Shown piece after piece: positions 55,527 to 64,000 of a DNA stretch of 64,000 nucleotides. The stretch comes from an uncultured bacterium (GTDB lineage Bacteria > Chloroflexota > UBA5177 > JANWHV01). Location: contig CAWHAE010000012.1 of assembly GCA_963827235.1 (NCBI GenBank), positions 544,001-608,000 on the forward strand, given 5' to 3'. The position numbers and the translations under genes are program-made. Under the pieces are notes generated by a model, which was given only the letters and a program-made list of their open reading frames with translations, was not told the DNA's origin and searched no databases. The first letter of the stretch is position 1; every line of letters begins with the position of its first letter.

Positions 55527-57842
55527 ATGGAGCCCCTTTTCACGGCACTCGCTGGCTTCTGTGTCCGCTTCAAGTACCCGGTGGCAGTGCTCTGGATCGT
55601 CGTGACGATCGCCAGCGTGGCGCTGTGTCCGGGTCTCTCCAGCGTCGCCAAGGATCAAAACAGCAGCTTCCTCCCGTCGAGCGCGCCGAGCATGCAAGCG
55701 GCTGGGCTTGCCTCTCCCTGGCGCGACGTCGACCTCATCACCGGGGCGATCGTCGCCGCTCGCGCCGATGGCATTCTCACGAAATCAGACCAGGCTGCAA
55801 TCGGTCGCCTTGCCGCTGCCATCCGCATGCTGCCTCACGTCAAGACCTTTCAGGATCAAGGCGTGGCGGTAGACGGGAAAGCTCGTCAGTTCAGTATCCA
55901 GGCCGACGTCAACTGGAGCGGCACGGGAACGGCCAAGACGCTCGTGGATACCATCCGTCACGACTTCACCACAGTTGGCGCCCCGCCCGGCCTCGAGATG
56001 CACGTGACCGGCGAGCTGGGCATTCTGGTCGATCAGGCGGTGGCACAGTCGAGCTCGCAGGGCAAGACGACGTATCTCTCCTACCTGTTCATCATCGTGC
56101 TGCTGCTGATCGCTTTCCGCGCCCTGCTTGCGCCGCTCGTCACTCTCCTGCCGGCCGCCCTGGTGCTGGCGCTTTCCGGTCCGGTGATCGCCGCATCCAC
56201 GCACCTGGGCGTGCAGGTGGGCACCATCACCCAGATCATCCTGATCGTGCTTATCCTGGGCGCCGGCACCGACTACGGACTCTTCCTCGTCTTCCGCGTG
56301 CGCGAGGAGCTGCTCCGCGGGCGCACGACCAACGACGCTGTGATCCATTCGCTGACGAACGTTGGCGAGACGATCAGCTTCTCGGCATTCACGGTAATCG
56401 CCGCCATGCTCAGTCTGCTGCTGTCCGAGTTCGGCTTCTACCAGGGGTTGGGACCGGCTCTGGCCATCGGCATCGGCTTGATGCTTCTCGCCGGCCTGAC
56501 CCTGCTGCCAGCCGTCCTCGCCATCTTCGGTCGCGCGGTCTTCTGGCCCTCGAACACGACGGCGAGCGCGGGGGACAAGATCGGCATCTGGGGCGCAACC
56601 GCCGTGCGCGTGGTGCGCCGGCCCGTGGTCACGTTGGTCGCCCTGATCGGGGTATTCGTGCTCCTGGCCTGCGGTCTGATCAACTCCGGTACGACCGGCT
56701 TTGGCGATACCGTGAGCGGGCCGAAAGGCAGCGACTCGGCGGCCGGCCAGGCCCTGATCGCCGTCCACTGGCCGCAGTCGGGGGACAGCATCTACCAGTC
56801 GCTCATTCTCTTCCGCTTCGATCAGCCGGTCTGGAGCCAGCTCGATAAGCTCAACACCATCCAGTCCAACCTGGCGGCCAGCGGTGCCTTCGTCCCGCGC
56901 AGTCTCAGCGGCCCGCTCAACCCGTATGGCGCTCATCTGACCACCGTGCAGCTGGCCGCGCTACACAAGCAGCTCGGTCCGGCGCAAGCCTTGCCGGCGG
57001 TGCAGCCCGCCAGCCTCAAGAAGGTGGCGCCGCTCGCCTACATGGCTTACCGCGCCACGTTCCTTTACATAAGCGCGGACGGCAAGACGGTGCAGTGGAT
57101 CGGCATGACCACGGCCAACAACACTGGCAGCACGCACGATTTGAACCAGATGCCGGTGCTGCGCGATAGCGTCGGCGCGCTTGGGCGGCAAGTGCGGGCC
57201 GCGCAAACCGGCGTCTTCAGCGATATGGCATTCTCGTACGACGTCAGCTCCCTCGCCAACGACGACCTGCACCACATCATTCCTTTCGTGGCGATAGTGA
57301 TTGCCATTCTGCTGGCCATTGTGCTGCGCAGTCTGATGGCGCCGCTTTACCTGGTGGCCAGCGTCGTGCTTTCCTATCTGGCTGCCCTGGGCTTCGCGTC
57401 CTACGTGTTCGTGCACTTCGGTCCCAACTCGGGTCTCAACTTCGTGCTGCCGTTCCTGGTGTTCATCTTCCTCACCGCGCTGGGGTCCGACTACAATATC
57501 CTGGTTATGACCCGCATCCGCGAGGAGGCGAAGAAGCGGCCTCTGCGCCAGGCCGTCTGGTATGCCGTGGGCGTAAGCGGCAGCACGATCACTACGGCGG
57601 GCACTATCCTTGCCGGCACATTCGCCGTGCTCGCCTTTGCTGCCGGCGACCAGAGTGGCGCCGATCAGATGCGCCAGATCGGCTACGGCATCGCCGCCGG
57701 CGTGCTGATGGATACGTTCCTGATCAGGTCGCTGCTCGTGCCCGCCTTCGTGACCTTGCTCGGGCGCTGGAACTGGTGGCCCTCCAAGCTCTTCCGCCAC
57801 CAGATCGATGAGGAGCCGAGCGACGTCGAGGGCGCGGCCTAG
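55527..57842 (+). CDS. MMPL/RND family transporter
   Basis: RBS AGGAGG, GAGTDYGLFLVFR.REE, ALGSDYNILVMTRIREE and LGRWNWWP. Confidence 0.93.
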   Translation: MEPLFTALAGFCVRFKYPVAVLWIVVTIASVALCPGLSSVAKDQNSSFLPSSAPSMQAAGLASPWRDVDLITGAIVAARADGILTKSDQAAIGRLAAAIRMLPHVKTFQDQGVAVDGKARQFSIQADVNWSGTGTAKTLVDTIRHDFTTVGAPPGLEMHVTGELGILVDQAVAQSSSQGKTTYLSYLFIIVLLLIAFRALLAPLVTLLPAALVLALSGPVIAASTHLGVQVGTITQIILIVLILGAGTDYGLFLVFRVREELLRGRTTNDAVIHSLTNVGETISFSAFTVIAAMLSLLLSEFGFYQGLGPALAIGIGLMLLAGLTLLPAVLAIFGRAVFWPSNTTASAGDKIGIWGATAVRVVRRPVVTLVALIGVFVLLACGLINSGTTGFGDTVSGPKGSDSAAGQALIAVHWPQSGDSIYQSLILFRFDQPVWSQLDKLNTIQSNLAASGAFVPRSLSGPLNPYGAHLTTVQLAALHKQLGPAQALPAVQPASLKKVAPLAYMAYRATFLYISADGKTVQWIGMTTANNTGSTHDLNQMPVLRDSVGALGRQVRAAQTGVFSDMAFSYDVSSLANDDLHHIIPFVAIVIAILLAIVLRSLMAPLYLVASVVLSYLAALGFASYVFVHFGPNSGLNFVLPFLVFIFLTALGSDYNILVMTRIREEAKKRPLRQAVWYAVGVSGSTITTAGTILAGTFAVLAFAAGDQSGADQMRQIGYGIAAGVLMDTFLIRSLLVPAFVTLLGRWNWWPSKLFRHQIDEEPSDVEGAA

Positions 57843-58087: not shown

Positions 58088-60709
58088 CTACTTCACAGCC
58101 GCTCCGGCGGTTGCTGCCTCCATCTCGCCGTGCTTGAACACAAGCCGGCCACCCTCCACGTCGACGAGCACCGTGTCGCCTCCGGCGAAGTCGCCGGCGA
58201 GCAAGGCCGAGGCCAGCGGATCCATGATGCGCCGCTGCAGCACCCGCTTGAGAGGACGGGCACCGTACACGGGATCGTAGCCTTCCTCGGCGATCATGTC
58301 CTTAGCTTCCGGCGACAGCTCCAGATCCACATGGCGGTCGGCCAGGCGCCCGCGCAGAGCCCTGAGTTGAATGTCGACGATCTCGCCGATCTGGCCGCGC
58401 GTCAGCGTGGCGAAGGTGACGACGTCGTCCACGCGATTGAGGAACTCCGGTCGGAAGTGTGACCGCAGCGCCTCGTTCACCCGCCGCCGCATCTCTTCCT
58501 GGTCCGACGGTCCCAGCTCGGCGATGTACTGGCTGCCGATGTTGCTCGTCATCACGATGATGGTGTTCGTGAAGTCAACCGTTCTGCCCTGTCCGTCGGT
58601 GAGCCGGCCGTCGTCCAGCACCTGCAGCAGGATGTTGAAGACGTCCGCGTGCGCCTTCTCAATCTCGTCGAGCAGCAACACGCAGTAGGGCCGGCGACGA
58701 ACCGCCTCGGTCAGCTGGCCGCCTTCGTCGTATCCTATGTATCCCGGCGGGGCACCCACCAGGCGGGACACGCTGTGTCGCTCCATGTACTCGCTCATGT
58801 CGAGGCGGATCATGGCGCGCTCGTCGTCGAACAGGAATTCGGCCAGCGCCCGGGCCAGCTCGGTCTTGCCCACGCCGGTCGGTCCGAGGAAAATGAACGA
58901 GCCCAGCGGGCGGTTGGGATCCTGCAGGCCGGCGCGGGCCCGGCGAAGGGCGTTGGCGACGGCGCCGATTGCCTCGTCCTGGCCCACTACCCGGAGATGC
59001 AGGCTCTCTTCCATGCGCAGAAGCTTGCGCATCTCGGCCTCCATTAGCCGGTTGACCGGGATGCCGGTCCAACGGCTGACGACGGTGGCGATGTCCTCTT
59101 CGCCCACTTCCTCTTTCAGCAGACGCCGTTCCCCTTCACCCGCGTCCAGCGCCGCCTGCTTCTCGCGCAGCTCACGCTCGAGGGCCGGGAGGGTGCCGTA
59201 GCGCAGCTCGGCGGCCCGGTTGAGATCGTAGGCGCGCTCGGCCTGCTCCATTTGCAGCTTTGCCGTCTCGATTCTCTCGCGCAGGTTGCGCACCGCGGTG
59301 ATCGCAGCTTTCTCCTGCTGCCATCGCGCCTTCAGCGCTCCGCCTTCTTCGCCCAGCTCGGCGATCTCGGCTTCCAGGCGCTGCAGGCGGTCGCGCGAGC
59401 CGGCATCGGTCTCCTTTTGCAGGGCCTGGCGCTCGACTTCGAGCTGCATGCGCCGCCGTTCAATCTCGTCGAGCTCCGCCGGCATGGAATCTATCTCCAT
59501 GCGCAGGGTGGCCGCGGCCTCGTCGATCAGGTCGATCGCCTTGTCCGGCAGGAACCTATCCGCTATGTAGCGGTTGGAGAGCACGGCGGCGGCCACCAGC
59601 GCCGCGTCCTTGATCTGTACGCCGTGATGGACTTCATAGCGCTCGCGCAGTCCGCGCAGGATGCTGATCGTGTCCTCCACCGTGGGCTCGCTGACCAGCA
59701 CCTGCTGGAACCGGCGCTCCAGGGCGGCATCCTTCTCTATGTTCTTGCGGTATTCGTCCAGCGTGGTGGCGCCTATGCAGTGCAGCTCGCCCCGGGCCAG
59801 CATCGGCTTGAGCAGGTTGCTTGCATCCATGGCGCCTTCGACCTTGCCCGCGCCGACCACGGTATGGATCTCATCGATGAACAGGATGACGCCTCCCGCG
59901 GCCTTCTGCACATCCTGCAGCACCGCCTTGAGCCGTTCCTCGAACTCGCCGCGATACTTGGCGCCGGCGATCAGCGCACCCATGTCGAGGGCGATCAAGC
60001 GCCGGTCTTTCAGGCCCTCGGGCACGTCGCCGCGGACGATGCGAGTGGCCAGCCCTTCGGCGATGGCGGTCTTGCCCACGCCAGGCTCGCCGATCAGCAC
60101 CGGGTTGTTCTTCGTGCGCCTGGAGAGGATCTGCATCACACGCCTGATCTCGTCGTCGCGTCCGATCACGGGATCGAGCTTGCCCGCGCGGGCAAGCTCG
60201 GTGAGGTCGCGCCCGTAGCGCTCGAGGGCCCGGTACGTCTCCTCCGAGCTTGCCGACGTGGCGCGCTTGCCGCCTCGAACGCTCTCCACGGCGGCGCGGA
60301 TGCGACTCGTCTCACCGCCGGCCTGCCGCAGCAGGTCGCCTGCACGGTCGCCGCGCGGCGACGACGCCAGGGCCAGCAGCAGATGTTCGACCGCGAGGTA
60401 GGCGTCACCCATGCCCACTGCTTCTCCGTGAGCGCGCGTCACGGCGCCGCGAAAGCCGGAGGAGTAGCCGATCTGCGCGTCGCCGCCCACGCGCGGCAAC
60501 CTGGCGATCTCCTGGTCGGCGCGTCGCTTTAGCCCTGCCGGCTCGACCTGAGCCTGGCGCAACACCGCCGTGACCAGGCCTTCCGGGTGCGCGAGCATGG
60601 CGCTCAACAGGTGGAGCGTCTCGACCTCCGGATTGCCATTCGCAGTCGCCTGATTCTGAGCATCCAGGATCGCCTCCTGGGCTTTCTCGGTCAACTGGTA
60701 CTCATTCAT
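58088..60709 (-). CDS. clpB: ATP-dependent chaperone ClpB
   Basis: [18 protein letters not shown], long coiled-coil M domain, GPTGVGKT and YGARPLKR. 873 aa. Confidence 0.97.
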
Positions 60710-60749
60710 GATTCAACACCCATGCCACGTTTCTTGTACGCTGGACGCA

Positions 60750-60784
60750 TAGAATACTTGATAGTCATTCTATCAAGTATTCTA
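60750..60784. promoter_or_regulatory. HAIR-like (HspR-type) operator upstream of clpB
   Basis: Perfect 15-bp inverted repeat with core CTTGATA-N7-TATCAAG. Confidence 0.75.
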
Positions 60785-60815
60785 CATCGTGGCGGGGCAG
60801 GAATCAAGTCTCGAT

Positions 60816-61406
60816 TCAGGCCATGCACAACTCCTCCTGCTGCATCTCGGGTACCGCTGTGTGCAGGAACGTCTCCACGAAGCTGCCGTCCCACTGCTGC
60901 CCGGCGCCTTCCGCGAGCGCTTCGATCGCTGCGCGTACCGGCAACGCGGGGTGAAACGGGCTTTCGTGGGTCAAAGCGTCGAAGCATTCGGCGATGGCGA
61001 TAATCCGCGATCCGAGCGGAATGCGCTCCCCGCACATGTGGCCTGGATAGCCGTCGCCGTCGAAGCGTTCGTGGTGGTGGAGGACGATTTCCGCCGTGCG
61101 CTGAGCCCCGGGTTGCGCGCGCAGATAAGCGGCGCCACGATCCGTGTGATGGCGCACCCAGCTCCACTCCAGCGGCGTGAGGCGGCGAGACCGCACAAGG
61201 GCCGCTTCCGGCACCGCCAGCTTGCCGATATCGTGCAGCCGCGCCGCGTCGAGAATCAGCTGCGCATCCTTCCCCGTCACGCCCAACGCCTTGAGCGTCG
61301 GCGCCACGAGAGCCGCCACGCGCTTACAGTGCCCCGGCATGCCGGAGCGCACGTCGGCGGCATCGGTAAGGCTGCCCAGTACGGTCATCGCAGTCTCTGT
61401 AATCAT
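60816..61406 (-). CDS. Stand-alone HD-GYP domain phosphodiesterase
   Basis: HCKRV, LHDIGK, HHHERFDGDGYP and RIIAIAECFDALT. Alternative start at 61517. Confidence 0.88.
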   Translation of the reverse strand: MITETAMTVLGSLTDAADVRSGMPGHCKRVAALVAPTLKALGVTGKDAQLILDAARLHDIGKLAVPEAALVRSRRLTPLEWSWVRHHTDRGAAYLRAQPGAQRTAEIVLHHHERFDGDGYPGHMCGERIPLGSRIIAIAECFDALTHESPFHPALPVRAAIEALAEGAGQQWDGSFVETFLHTAVPEMQQEELCMA

Positions 61407-61431
61407 GTTCTCGTCTGGTCGCAGGCACCGA

Positions 61432-61836
61432 TCACCGCCGGATCGGAACCGTGCGACTCGCCCTTTCTGCGCCCTGACTCCGGCCGCTCGGCCAGGTTGT
61501 TGCTGAGGTCGATCCATGATGGAGTGCGCCCACGTACTCGCCGCTGCGCCAAGCACAGACGGGGCGTGTGCCGACCAATCGAATGGGCTCCGTGCCCGCT
61601 TCATACTCCGCCGCACCCCAGGAGCCGTCCTGCGGCGGACGCCCGCAGGCGCGACGACTCACGGCGTCCGCGAACTGCTCCAGCGTCTGCGCCTGAATGC
61701 CGACCAGGGATTCGGCGAGCAACTTGTCGTAGCCGGCGTCGATGGCGGCACACCGCGGGTTTGCCAGCAGGCGCCCGGCAAAGGTGCCGTCCACCGAGGC
61801 CTCGGCGAGTAGCCGTTCGTAGGTGCGAAACCGCAC
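61432..61836 (-). CDS. Small NHLP-clan-like (Os1348-like) protein
   Basis: GTG after AGGAG..GGGAG. ERLLAEASVDGTFAGRLLANP..A...GY....L.GIQAQTLEQFA. Confidence 0.65.
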   Translation of the reverse strand: MRFRTYERLLAEASVDGTFAGRLLANPRCAAIDAGYDKLLAESLVGIQAQTLEQFADAVSRRACGRPPQDGSWGAAEYEAGTEPIRLVGTRPVCAWRSGEYVGALHHGSTSATTWPSGRSQGAERASRTVPIRR

Positions 61837-61958
61837 AGCTCCCTGCTCCTATTCCTGACATAACGCGTCGATGGTAGGATATGTATCGTCCCGGTCACGG
61901 CCATCGACGCCGTGTGCACATGGCAACCGCAATGCTCGGCTCTGAGCCTAGGTGGGGG

Positions 61959-62228
61959 CTATGCGTTGAGCGACTCACTATCGGCAGCGGCTACAGGCGC
62001 CTGCTGCGCGAAGGGCTGCGCGCCAAGCCCGTCGGCTAGCAGCGACGTGGCGGCAAACGGCTGCGCGCCGAGACCATCCGCGATCTTCGAAACGTGGGCG
62101 AACGGCTGCGCACCCAGCCCGTCGGCCGTGGAACGGCCCGTGTTGTGCGTGGGTGAGATGCTTGCGGACGATAGCAGGGAACCGGCAACGAGGCTGCTGA
62201 CCGTGATGGCGGCGACAAGCTTGCGCAT
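61959..62228 (-). CDS. Secreted multi-core peptide precursor (3 x ADGLGAQPFA), putative signalling propeptide
   Basis: RBS AAGGAAAGG, Sec-type leader MRKLVAAITVSSLVAGSLLSSASI, and three identical 10-aa cores with synonymous-only divergence. Confidence 0.85.
   Translation of the reverse strand: MRKLVAAITVSSLVAGSLLSSASISPTHNTGRSTADGLGAQPFAHVSKIADGLGAQPFAATSLLADGLGAQPFAQQAPVAAADSESLNA
62007..62126 (-). repeat. Three 30-bp coding repeats at a 45-bp period
   Basis: Copies at 62097-62126, 62052-62081 and 62007-62036. Confidence 0.95.
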
Positions 62229-62372
62229 GGGACTGCCTTTCCTTCGGCTCGATGTGCTCGAGGCCACCTCGAGCTGCCGCCAGACTAGGCTTCGTCCCGT
62301 TCCCACACCGTTCCACGGTTTTTGCCCCCTTGAGCTCGCGGACATCCCTCCGCGCCGCACTGGAGGCTCCTG

Positions 62373-64000
62373 ATGGAGACGCCGGATCTGCTCCCATTCC
62401 CGCTCAGCAAGCTGGCGCCGCCGGTAGCCCGGCGGCCGCCGATCGCGCGACCGCGCCTCTTCGCCCAGCTTGGAAGCGGGAGCCGCCTGCTCCTGGTCAC
62501 CGCTCCTGCCGGGTTCGGCAAGTCGTCCCTACTTGCCTCCTCGATCGCCGAGACCGACCGATCGCCCGACCTCTGGCGGCCTGCGCATGCCGCCGACCAT
62601 CGTTTCGTCTGGTACAGTCTCGACGAGGCCGACGCGGATCCCGGAAGGCTGGTCGACGGCCTGGCTGCGGCCTACGAGCGAGTGGCACCAGGCACAGGCG
62701 GACCGTCCCGGGAGATGCTGGCTGCCGGCGCAAATGTCTATGCCGCTCTGGCCTCGCTAGTGGCGCGGGCCGAGCAGGCTCCCACGACACTGGTCCTGGA
62801 CAATTGCCACAACCTCGAGGGGGCGGGTGAGGCGGAGCGCGCCCTCAGCTACCTGCTCGCGAACTGCCCTTCGGCGCACCGCATCGTGATCGCCGGTCGC
62901 GGTACGCCGGCCACTCCTGTTGTTGCCGCCCTGGCAGCCGGCGCCGTGCGCTCCCTTGGCCCGGACGATTTGCAGTTCGGCGACGACGAAGCGGCTGCGC
63001 TGGCCGCGTTGTACGGCGTGTCCGAGGACCGGGCTGCCGCCGTGGTGCAGCCGGCGGCAGGTTGGGCCATCGGCATTGTGCTGCTGGCACATGCCGGCGG
63101 TCGGGATGCCGCCATCCTGCAGCGCCCGATTGACGCGCTGGCCGACTACTTGATGAGCGAGATCGTCGACCGGCTGCCCGAGGCGTCACGCAGGTTCGTT
63201 CTGGAGAGCGCGCTGCTCGGAACATTCGATGCTGCGGCAGCCGACGCGATCCTGGAGCGCACGGACAGCGCACTCGTGATCGACGGCCTCCTCCGACGTG
63301 GCATCTTTCTGGACTGCTTCCCTTCGCAGGACGGATTCCTCACCCGCTATCACGATCTGTTTGCCGCAGCCATGGCCGGCCGCTTGCAGCGCCAGGAGCC
63401 CCGGCGATGCCGCGAGATTCACCGCCGTGCCTCCGACTACTATGCGGACGATCCTCATCGGGCCCTGGCACACGGCGCGCGCATGCACGACCCGGACTAC
63501 CTGGCGCAGCAGCTCGATCGCTACCTGCCCATGCTGCGCCGGGCCGGGCACTGGGAAGCTCTGGTCCGCTACGGGGAACAGCTCCCGGTCCGATTGCAGT
63601 CCCTGTTTCTCCAACGCGTGCTGTCGTTCGCTCATTACACTCGCGGCGACGATCGGGCCGCGCTGGCAGCTGCCGACCGCGTGTACGAGGCCGCGGTGGC
63701 CCAGGGAGATCGGGAAGCACGCTACTCGGCCCTCGTGTTGCGGGCGAACACGCACTTCAGACAGGAACGGTATGCCGAGCTCCTGCAGTACTGCCTACCT
63801 GCCCTCAGCGAGGCGCGCGCGGCCGGCTTTGCGCTGGGCGAATGCTGGCTGGCATGGAACGTTTCCAAGGCGCTCCTGCGTGAGGGCCGTGTGCGGGAAG
63901 GCCTGGCCATGGTGAGCCGCACGCTCGAGCTGTATCGCTCGCTACCCGGGCCATCGACACCGCTCTCCATGGCCTTCTACGAGCAGGACGTTGTCCCGAT
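62373..64000 (+). CDS. MalT-like STAND ATPase/TPR transcriptional regulator (3' part outside window)
   Basis: RBS GGAGG. SKLAPP...IARPRL, APAGFGKS, WYSLDEADADP, LVLDNCH, AGW, DYL..EI, RYHDLF, then helical repeats. The frame is open to the window edge. Confidence 0.9.
   Translation, partial: METPDLLPFPLSKLAPPVARRPPIARPRLFAQLGSGSRLLLVTAPAGFGKSSLLASSIAETDRSPDLWRPAHAADHRFVWYSLDEADADPGRLVDGLAAAYERVAPGTGGPSREMLAAGANVYAALASLVARAEQAPTTLVLDNCHNLEGAGEAERALSYLLANCPSAHRIVIAGRGTPATPVVAALAAGAVRSLGPDDLQFGDDEAAALAALYGVSEDRAAAVVQPAAGWAIGIVLLAHAGGRDAAILQRPIDALADYLMSEIVDRLPEASRRFVLESALLGTFDAAAADAILERTDSALVIDGLLRRGIFLDCFPSQDGFLTRYHDLFAAAMAGRLQRQEPRRCREIHRRASDYYADDPHRALAHGARMHDPDYLAQQLDRYLPMLRRAGHWEALVRYGEQLPVRLQSLFLQRVLSFAHYTRGDDRAALAAADRVYEAAVAQGDREARYSALVLRANTHFRQERYAELLQYCLPALSEARAAGFALGECWLAWNVSKALLREGRVREGLAMVSRTLELYRSLPGPSTPLSMAFYEQDVVP

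Follow-up and report, generated by a model that had tools for sequence, protein, structure and literature searches.

A four-gene cassette at one end of the window (i.e., the whole 64,000-nucleotide stretch of DNA analyzed here, G000:C12:544001-608000, from the 8.0-Mb, 21-contig genome G000 of a soil Chloroflexota bacterium) is a candidate member of an undescribed Chloroflexota family of peptide-signaling systems. In this reading, to which we assign a probability of roughly 0.4, an NLR-like STAND-SARP regulator would sense a self-made, Sec-exported, multicopy peptide, with positive feedback, cyclic-dinucleotide hydrolysis, and private channels as the consequences. The four genes lie between a ClpB-type gene and the window end. 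On the minus strand, they encode a multicore peptide precursor of 89 amino acids (aa) (61959-62228), a 134-aa protein of the NHLP clan that resembles Os1348 and Frankia_peptide (61432-61836), and a stand-alone HD-GYP phosphodiesterase of ∼197 aa (60816-61409). The STAND regulator gene (from 62373, plus strand) is divergent from the peptide gene, and a 144-bp gap (62229-62372) separates the two. A first-pass annotation of the same DNA had described a Sec-leader propeptide with three identical cores, a divergent MalT-like STAND/TPR gene 144 bp away, and NHLP-clan-like and HD-GYP genes downstream of the peptide gene, all of which were found.

Three exact copies of the core ADGLGAQPF(A) follow the leader of the precursor, at 62100-62126 (copy 1), 62055-62081 (copy 2), and 62010-62036 (copy 3) of the minus strand, and a search of the 8-Mb genome found the motif ADGLGAQPF in this precursor gene alone. 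The copies differ by at least 8 substitutions, all of them synonymous and all at third codon positions of one frame; the chance of such a synonymous-only outcome is ∼3e-5, given that 27% of the single-base changes to these codons are synonymous. The reading frame is thus real and its repeat beyond chance. The gene has a conserved start codon, a ribosome-binding-like GGAAAGG, and a leader in frame with the cores. Across 16 multicore precursors, the varying codon columns comprised 89 with synonymous changes only versus 11 with an amino acid change, and the cores were identical in amino acids in 12 of the 16; in the L158 precursor, all 9 codons differ between copies while the peptide is unchanged. 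The chance of a synonymous-only outcome ranged from 8e-2 to 2e-5 per precursor. Because core copies differ only synonymously in 12 of these precursors, the peptide sequence itself is under selection, and, as each core was delimited from a repeated amino acid stretch, this test speaks for the stretch rather than for the exact core borders. This codon evidence shows that translation of the peptide frame takes place and that strong purifying selection holds its core copies identical.

By our own heuristic, the n-region in the leader of the window precursor is charged +2, and the hydrophobic window averages 2.32 on the Kyte-Doolittle scale. By the same heuristic, all 16 precursors are Sec-like, with n-region charges of +2 to +4, no acidic residue, and a 12-residue window of mean Kyte-Doolittle value 2.15 to 2.82 followed by small residues at −3/−1; a Cys closes the hydrophobic stretch in 5 of the 16, as in lipoprotein signals. 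The orthologue in G002, a genome of the same genus, is a 76-aa precursor with three copies of ADGSGTQPF, i.e., all three core copies changed together between the species. A profile of the 16 precursors retrieved 16 proteins at E values up to 0.001 among 1.84 billion representatives; the peptide family is rare in public data. Ten of these matches are short family members, including one (P0016) that carries the core of the window, ADGLGAQPF, three times with different spacers; the other 6 are long proteins (488 to 1889 aa) with multistretch matches. A protein-atlas comparison of the peptide gave a best score of 0.81, which serves as a lead only.

The four genes form a conserved module. They occur in identical order in G002, where a histidine phosphatase gene adjoins the HD-GYP gene in place of the ClpB-type neighbor of the window, so that the module ends at the HD-GYP gene. 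Full-length relatives of the regulator (∼30% identity) were collected from five genomes of the genus, yielding nine loci with upstream DNA on the contig. In all nine, a divergent small open reading frame (ORF) that begins with a Sec-like leader precedes an NHLP-like gene, and a gene with an HD_5 match comes next in seven. Six of the nine peptides are multicore and three are single core. Besides the window and G002 forms, they comprise AGGANGGPL (7 copies, G000:C16), an ASGITSGPL-like core (5 copies, G001), SVNTGSGPL (4 copies, G004:C109), and NTSGGPL (3 copies, G003:C203), along with single copies of GGAGSPPIF (G000:C10), ATTIQPGPL (G003:C160), and AAPIQPGPL (G004:C267). Genome G000 alone thus carries three cassettes (window, C16, and C10), each with its own core. 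A metagenome scan kept 80 loci, of which the 18 with the longest matches were examined: 17 have a peptide ORF, 17 an NHLP-like match, and 15 an HD-GYP match. L220 is the locus with no peptide ORF, NHLP-like, or HD-GYP match, and in L160 the best NHLP-like match lies on the far side of the regulator. Several of the metagenome loci nearly duplicate one another or G003. In all, at least 16 different cores were found, most of them ending in G-x-G-P-L or Q-P-F. The first-pass annotation had expected homologues of the regulator to have an adjacent small peptide ORF, and this is what 9/9 genus loci and 17/18 metagenome loci show; regulators generally devoid of such neighbors were not what was seen. 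Two loci (L164:1-1175 and L165:1-670) have a second STAND gene beside the cassette, with its own NHLP-like gene and a run of 21-nucleotide (nt) tandem repeats; one frame of these repeats reads SLPKRAG-like, with no recognizable signal peptide or clear reading frame.

The window covers the N-terminal 542 residues of the regulator (62373-64000), whose gene runs on to the window-equivalent position 65585. Reading of the contig beyond the window gave the full protein of 1070 aa, in which Pfam models identified an AAA_16/AAA_22 nucleoside triphosphatase (NTPase), a TPR_MalT region, and a C-terminal BTAD domain (44.8 bits versus a cutoff of 22.1). The MalT model NF003420 aligns residues 12-481 of the regulator with model positions 5-482 at 146.8 bits, far below its equivalog cutoff of 537, and the Pfam scan returned no match to a GerE/LuxR-type helix-turn-helix (HTH). 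No membrane domain figured among the domain matches, which came from general scans with no search aimed at membrane segments. Walker A (G47/G49/K50) and Walker B (D143) residues are invariant in the regulator alignment (A2). Built from the C-terminal 270 residues of 14 cassette regulators, profile A4 matched the SARP domain of AfsR (8hvr, 8jke, and 8k60; residues 25-284) at E values of 8e-24 to 4e-23 and EmbR at 1e-9; the window regulator alone gave a weak match to the AfsR model (E = 0.0094). The AlphaFold2 (AF2) model of the C terminus of the window regulator has a mean predicted local distance difference test (pLDDT) score of 75.9, and the top six Foldseek hits with it were AfsR and EmbR (E values of 2e-6 to 2e-5; template modeling scores of 0.46 to 0.53). 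As the C-terminal profile and Foldseek both point to AfsR/EmbR, the protein is, on its predicted domains, an NTPase-TPR-SARP activator with the modules of AfsR in reverse order, the SARP domain (winged helix-turn-helix plus BTAD) being located at residues ∼810 to 1070 of 1070. This end of the protein lies outside the window and hence was out of view of the first-pass annotation. In a midpoint-rooted FastTree phylogeny of 26 regulators, printed with no support values, the proteins grouped by core type.

A SARP domain predicts a particular kind of operator, and candidates for it precede the peptide genes. According to the part of a published account available to us, SARP sites are 11-bp direct repeats in which 8 bp are contacted and the 3′ repeat and the −10 element are 8 bp apart, and SARP domains bind the two repeats as side-by-side dimers (PMC10936776). 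Upstream of the peptide gene in the window, the direct repeats TGGAACG and GGGAACG lie 11 nt apart (62298-62315, minus strand), and a −10-like hexamer, TAGTCT (62282-62287, minus strand), picked out by eye, is located 10 nt downstream of the second repeat. When spacings of 10 to 12 nt were tried, the 8-mer that best matched itself did so at exactly 11 nt in 6 of the 7 genus loci, upstream of a TAnnnT hexamer. The repeat sequence follows the paralogue group: the window and G002 have GGAACG(T/G), G003 and G004 have AACACAGG, and G001 and C16 have CTCAGGGT. In G002, GGAACGTT occurs twice, which was reached in 3 of 500 shuffles; for the perfect genus repeats as a group, this count is 3 to 7 of 500. 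Like the window, another genus locus has a repeat matching at 7 of 8 bases, a level attained by 111 of 500 shuffles. The −10-like hexamers lie 8 to 10 nt from the repeats by eye, with TATTGT in G002 at the same distance as in the window; a consensus promoter scan did not report these hexamers. Among distant Chloroflexota loci, 11 of 13 have a tandem repeat of a 12-nt unit, TTTTGnnnCCTG, upstream of the peptide gene, exact over 11 to 13 nt at a 12-nt period and with a lineage-specific center. As read from the DNA, the peptide operon is preceded by SARP-type direct repeats that vary in sequence from one paralogous cassette to another, including those two of G000 in which repeats were detectable (window and C16). 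The combination of a C-terminal SARP domain with 11-nt-period repeats upstream of a −10-like hexamer supports a regulatory link from the regulator to the operon. In four loci (L049/L050/L051/L052, of the G003/G004 and G001/C16 groups), the direct repeats precede the start codon of the peptide gene by ∼250 nt, implying long leaders that are conserved between orthologues and have no Rfam match.

The first-pass annotation had proposed a motif common to the promoters of the peptide and NHLP-like genes. The longest word shared by these two minus-strand regions is the 8-mer CGGGACGA, a length that 291 of 1000 shuffles also attained, and at the orthologous G002 locus the two regions do not have it in common; we thus rejected this motif as chance level. 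The quorum-type circuit put forward there has accordingly lost one of its supports and gained others, since the module is conserved and the SARP domain with the 11-nt-period repeats links the regulator to the operon.

It is the NHLP-like gene, rather than the HD-GYP gene, that accompanies the regulator and the peptide most constantly. In the window, its product scores below the cutoffs of both PF14407 (26 versus 48 bits) and NF038399 (27.3 versus 40 bits). Partners elsewhere exceed the cutoffs (41.7 bits for the C16 copy; 54.4 and 51.9 bits for L058), and, because alignment A6 joins it to them, the window protein is a divergent member of the same group. Its AF2 model has pLDDT values above 90 over residues 1-65, which form short helices, followed by a disordered and unconserved tail. 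Foldseek returned no match with this head at E values up to 0.001, and VIA-align gave weak similarities, with a best Z score of 4.6 and values of 4.5 for the SonA precursor of a ribosomally synthesized and posttranslationally modified peptide (RiPP), 4.0 for a proteusin precursor, and 3.6 for Os1348 (6lk7). A homologue search with the head found 2 proteins. Most NHLP-like partners stop just after the helical head or with a short tail. Most genus copies in A6 end in LYG, ∼12 variable residues, and AVAG, SIAG, or RLAG; the window and G002 copies do not.

The fourth gene is predicted to supply the output. Its product matches HD_5 at 2.9e-31 (108.9 bits versus a cutoff of 27.2). The ORF is open to a GTG at 61616, and the ATG at 61409 is favored as the start by alignment with the 209-aa orthologue of G002. 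The HD-GYP signature consists of HD plus HHExxDGxGYP, and the protein carries LHDIGK and HHERFDGDGYP (alignment A1), so that phosphodiesterase activity is predicted. The N-terminal extension of paralogous HD-GYP proteins has no similarity to the NHLP-like protein. G000 has 27 GGDEF matches, and hence a cyclic di-GMP (c-di-GMP) network, along with many HD-GYP paralogues.

Related cassettes extend to distant Chloroflexota. The NHLP-like head (profile A6) was detected in 80 of 401 Chloroflexota genomes at E values up to 1e-6, concentrated in few families (16/24 genomes in f8 and 24/25 in f13). In 25 loci centered on such matches and taken with 1.5-kb flanks, three of which had already been seen, a regulator C terminus was adjacent in 18, HD-GYP in 19, DUF5317 in 13, and, by tblastn, a small peptide in 9; reading of the gap sequences revealed further peptide forms in 7 more. 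Nine distant loci carry, on one strand, a regulator, a 44- to 50-aa peptide, DUF5317, an NHLP-like gene, and a PAS-GAF-HD-GYP gene. The distant peptides consist of a basic head, a hydrophobic stretch, and a tail such as APSDGGGISR, and four loci (L247, L249, L252, and L253) have an IDRR(H/Y)-type peptide. Given the further multicore forms in distant cassettes, multicore precursors emerged on at least three occasions within the cassette family. One of these loci (L254; G076:C95, 1680-2700, minus strand) has two tandem leaderless precursor genes with NPESFGS cores and VKS/MKR between them, the first gene being partly masked (N). The DUF5317 genes of G000 (G000:C10:735194-737013 and G000:C12:680001-683639) have GGDEF/HD-GYP genes as neighbors and stand apart from the three cassettes; in distant Chloroflexota, by comparison, the cassette itself includes DUF5317, placed after the peptide gene and before the NHLP-like gene. 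This double association suggests a wider link between DUF5317 and HD-GYP.

Among known systems, the RRNPP pairs (Rap-Phr, PlcR-PapR, NprR-NprX, AimR-AimP, and Rgg-SHP) are similar in that a small propeptide gene stands beside that of a TPR-armed cytoplasmic regulator, with several paralogous pairs per genome; the logic of autoinduction is likely shared by the cassette. RRNPP receptors consist of TPR repeats with or without an N-terminal XRE-type HTH and have no NTPase module. The gene for a putatively exported propeptide does adjoin the regulator gene in the cassette, across the 144-bp gap of the window and at the genus and metagenome loci counted above, but the regulator contains a Walker NTPase and a C-terminal SARP domain. 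Also unlike RRNPP systems, the cassette has precursors with up to 7 identical cores, an NHLP-clan gene that is always present, and a host in the phylum Chloroflexota. By analogy, the cassette would work like RRNPP circuits, yet its receptor architecture places it outside that family. In the accessible part of the source, RRNPP systems are described as a feature of Bacillota, including their mobile elements (PMC10075063).

AfsR and other large Streptomyces SARPs (SARP-NOD-TPR) likewise combine a SARP region (winged helix-turn-helix plus BTAD), a nucleotide-binding oligomerization domain, and a TPR arm, and the promoters they target carry, close to the −10 element, a pair of direct repeats with an 11-bp period. 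The cassette regulator has the OmpR-type winged helix and BTAD, and repeats near the −10 element at a period of 11 nt (6/7 genus loci) or 12 nt (11/13 distant loci) compare with the 11- or 22-bp periods of SARP sites. However, the SARP domain is N terminal in SARPs, whereas the order in the cassette is NTPase-TPR-SARP; moreover, the NTPase is closer to MalT, and the candidate target is the peptide/HD-GYP operon instead of an antibiotic regulator gene. By predicted fold and operator, the protein is a SARP regulator with an unusual domain order. It shares the N-terminal Walker NTPase and MalT-like TPR region of MalT and the LAL group of STAND activators but, with its low score on the equivalog model and a SARP domain instead of a LuxR-type HTH, is not a MalT.

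Yeast alpha-factor, animal prohormones, and the precursors of cyanobactins and graspetides all have identical or near-identical cores with variable spacers, as does the cassette precursor. Unlike these, the cassette precursor is bacterial with a Sec-type leader, lacks a maturase or dedicated protease next to it, and is partnered by a STAND protein; no protease, ATP-grasp, or cyclodehydratase gene is conserved next to the cassettes, in contrast with cyanobactin and graspetide loci. The second gene of the operon matches the models to which Os1348 and Frankia_peptide belong (PF14407 and NF038399). Os1348 is presented, in the portion of the report available, as an 85-aa dimeric protein and a precursor in Pseudomonas sp. 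Os17, with modification genes downstream, efflux transporter genes beyond them, and a link to antibiotic activity (PMC7726476); such modification and efflux neighbors of the Os17 OS3 cluster are not conserved at the cassettes. A literature search, which left subscription journals mostly uncovered, found no published account of genetically encoded peptide signaling through cytoplasmic receptors in Chloroflexota, of DUF5317, or of this cassette.

The best explanation, at just short of even odds, is that the cassette works in the manner of RRNPP systems, as an autoinducing circuit with the STAND-SARP protein as peptide receptor and a cyclic dinucleotide at the output. Sec would export the precursor, and cleavage would release several identical 9- to 13-aa peptides ending in G-x-x-P-[LF]. 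The peptide would build up outside the cell, be reimported, and bind the TPR arm, letting the NTPase switch on and the regulator oligomerize. The SARP domains would next bind both direct repeats and bring RNA polymerase to the peptide operon, which would result in positive feedback on the peptide and, by induction of the HD-GYP protein, in less c-di-GMP or a related cyclic dinucleotide. Several cores per precursor would give more signal per transcript, and the three cassettes in one genome would serve as separate channels, with a core and an operator specific to each.

A number of observations weigh against this circuit. The repeat in the window matches at 7 of 8 bases and was reached in 91 of 500 shuffles, which makes it weak when taken alone, and no 11-nt-period repeat was found in the C10 cassette. 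Signal peptides were called by simple rules of our own and −10 elements by eye. Between pairs of regulators with different cores, per-domain identity reveals no faster change in the TPR arm, the fastest-changing domain being the SARP domain. An oligopeptide permease lies near the cassette in a single locus. Some related cassettes have leaderless peptides, namely, a 19-aa peptide in L242, a 4-core precursor in L236 (= L061) with the core SPLDVCSGGR(R), and a precursor in L254 whose NPESFGS cores number at least 7 and show synonymous differences only, with a masked stretch inside; export is thus either not general or follows another route. In the PGPL single-core subfamily, a receiver-only response regulator gene replaces the HD-GYP gene (L161:2240-2779, minus strand, by Pfam; L067 = G004:C267, by translation), so that the output of the cassette is not fixed. 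The circuit gives no role to the NHLP-like protein. Finally, many of the loci are close kin, and their counts are not independent.

Several of these points would be accommodated if the peptide were an output and not the ligand, an explanation that we consider unlikely but well ahead of the remaining ones. The STAND-SARP regulator would sense another cue (a nucleotide, a metabolite, or the NHLP-like protein) and switch on the operon; the exported peptide would act on surfaces, on other organisms, or, in the distant cassettes, on a membrane sensor (DUF5317), while the HD-GYP protein would adjust the physiology of the producer. STAND regulators such as MalT and AfsR answer to small molecules or phosphorylation, which fits this explanation, as does a TPR arm that changes no faster between core types. 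It also agrees with the NHLP-like protein, which is always there and could be the intracellular partner, and with the DUF5317 membrane protein gene that follows the peptide gene in 13/25 distant loci. Modulation of AfsR is described in the part of the source at hand (PMC10936776). Conversely, the three cassettes of G000 pair distinct cores with distinct regulators and, where detectable, distinct operators, as expected of matched signal-receptor channels, and this argues against a mere output. Core identity within precursors, together with the coordinated change between species, fits a specific receptor, and peptide genes beside TPR regulators are, in the accessible text of one source, the hallmark of RRNPP systems (PMC10075063).

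An improbable alternative is a RiPP-type system, in which the peptide and/or the NHLP-clan protein would be modified and exported by enzymes encoded elsewhere and the STAND-SARP protein would be the cluster-situated activator. Multicore precursors have precedent in cyanobactins and graspetides, and the second gene of the operon falls within the clan of the NHLP and Frankia_peptide precursors. SARPs typically activate antibiotic clusters, as far as the literature available in part describes, and Os1348 is itself portrayed, in the part accessible, as a precursor with downstream modification genes and an antibiotic role (PMC7726476). The first-pass annotation had pointed to modification enzymes tied to the peptide as evidence against signaling. 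None was found conserved beside the module, and scans of the flanks of 12 loci (27 ORFs) and of further flanks revealed no conserved maturase, peptidase, or dedicated transporter next to the cassette. Moreover, most NHLP-like partners have no obvious core, the last gene of the operon encodes a signaling enzyme, and the peptide has a Sec leader, which is unusual in RiPP precursors.

Even less probable is an uncleaved multivalent ligand, whose 2 to 7 identical motifs would bind several receptor protomers and drive their oligomerization. STAND proteins work by ligand-driven oligomerization, the number of cores ranges from 1 to at least 7, and the leaderless multicore forms would remain cytoplasmic; the side-by-side SARP dimers on two repeats, described in the available part of the source, are also compatible with it (PMC10936776). 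However, single-core forms are common in the same clades, and the Sec leader of the genus peptides would put the cores outside the cell, away from a regulator with no membrane domain in general domain scans, which included no aimed search. That the peptide is not a gene at all, its repeats being DNA-level elements such as operator sites and its ORF a product of chance, can be practically dismissed: nearly identical nucleotide tandem copies at some loci (e.g., L061) and the 21-nt repeats with no clear frame in L164 and L165 would suit this notion, but it is contradicted by the codon-position pattern of the core differences (all 8 at third positions in the window, and likewise in 11 other precursors), by the conserved start codon, in-frame Sec-like leader, and GGAAAGG, and by the location of the real operator-like repeats elsewhere.

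Regarding the surroundings, the window cassette is flanked by the ClpB-type chaperone gene (58088-60709, minus strand) and, beyond it, by a gene for an MMPL-family membrane protein (55527-57842, plus strand; 307.9 bits). The genes around cassettes vary by locus and include a two-component pair, a neighboring cassette, M20 peptidase genes (in 2 loci), and, at 1 locus, an Opp-type permease. The M20 peptidase genes are convergent to the regulator (L050:5039-6289 and L155:5790-6764, both on the minus strand), and G003:C203 has at that site Opp-type permease and solute-binding genes under a GntR regulator instead; neither arrangement is conserved across loci. The ATP-grasp_5 match of L051 and L052 belongs to a GNAT/CoA-ligase protein seen at just those 2 loci. 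The spacer between the peptide and NHLP-like genes of the window contains a perfect 9-bp inverted repeat, CGTCGATGG / CCATCGACG, at 61866-61874 and 61901-61909, and its predicted folding is no better than that of shuffled sequence (z = 0.60). A terminator scan found no intrinsic terminator in 60600-62500, and Rfam gave 0 matches at E values up to 1 in six cassette loci. One DNA sequencing run contained a fraction of 0.13 of the sampled words, and the runs found included no RNA.

If the signaling circuit proposed here is true, peptide signaling would be extended to a deep-branching phylum that is abundant in soil, a bacterial STAND/NLR-like switch would gain a peptide ligand, and peptide sensing would be tied to second-messenger turnover. 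At least 16 natural peptide/regulator/operator triplets would then be available for orthogonality tests. Multicore precursors kept identical by selection are, in addition, a clean example from nature of dosage through repetition. Should the peptide turn out to be an output alone, the reversed AfsR-like architecture of the regulator and its operator rule (two repeats with a variable center, followed by a −10 element) would still be new.

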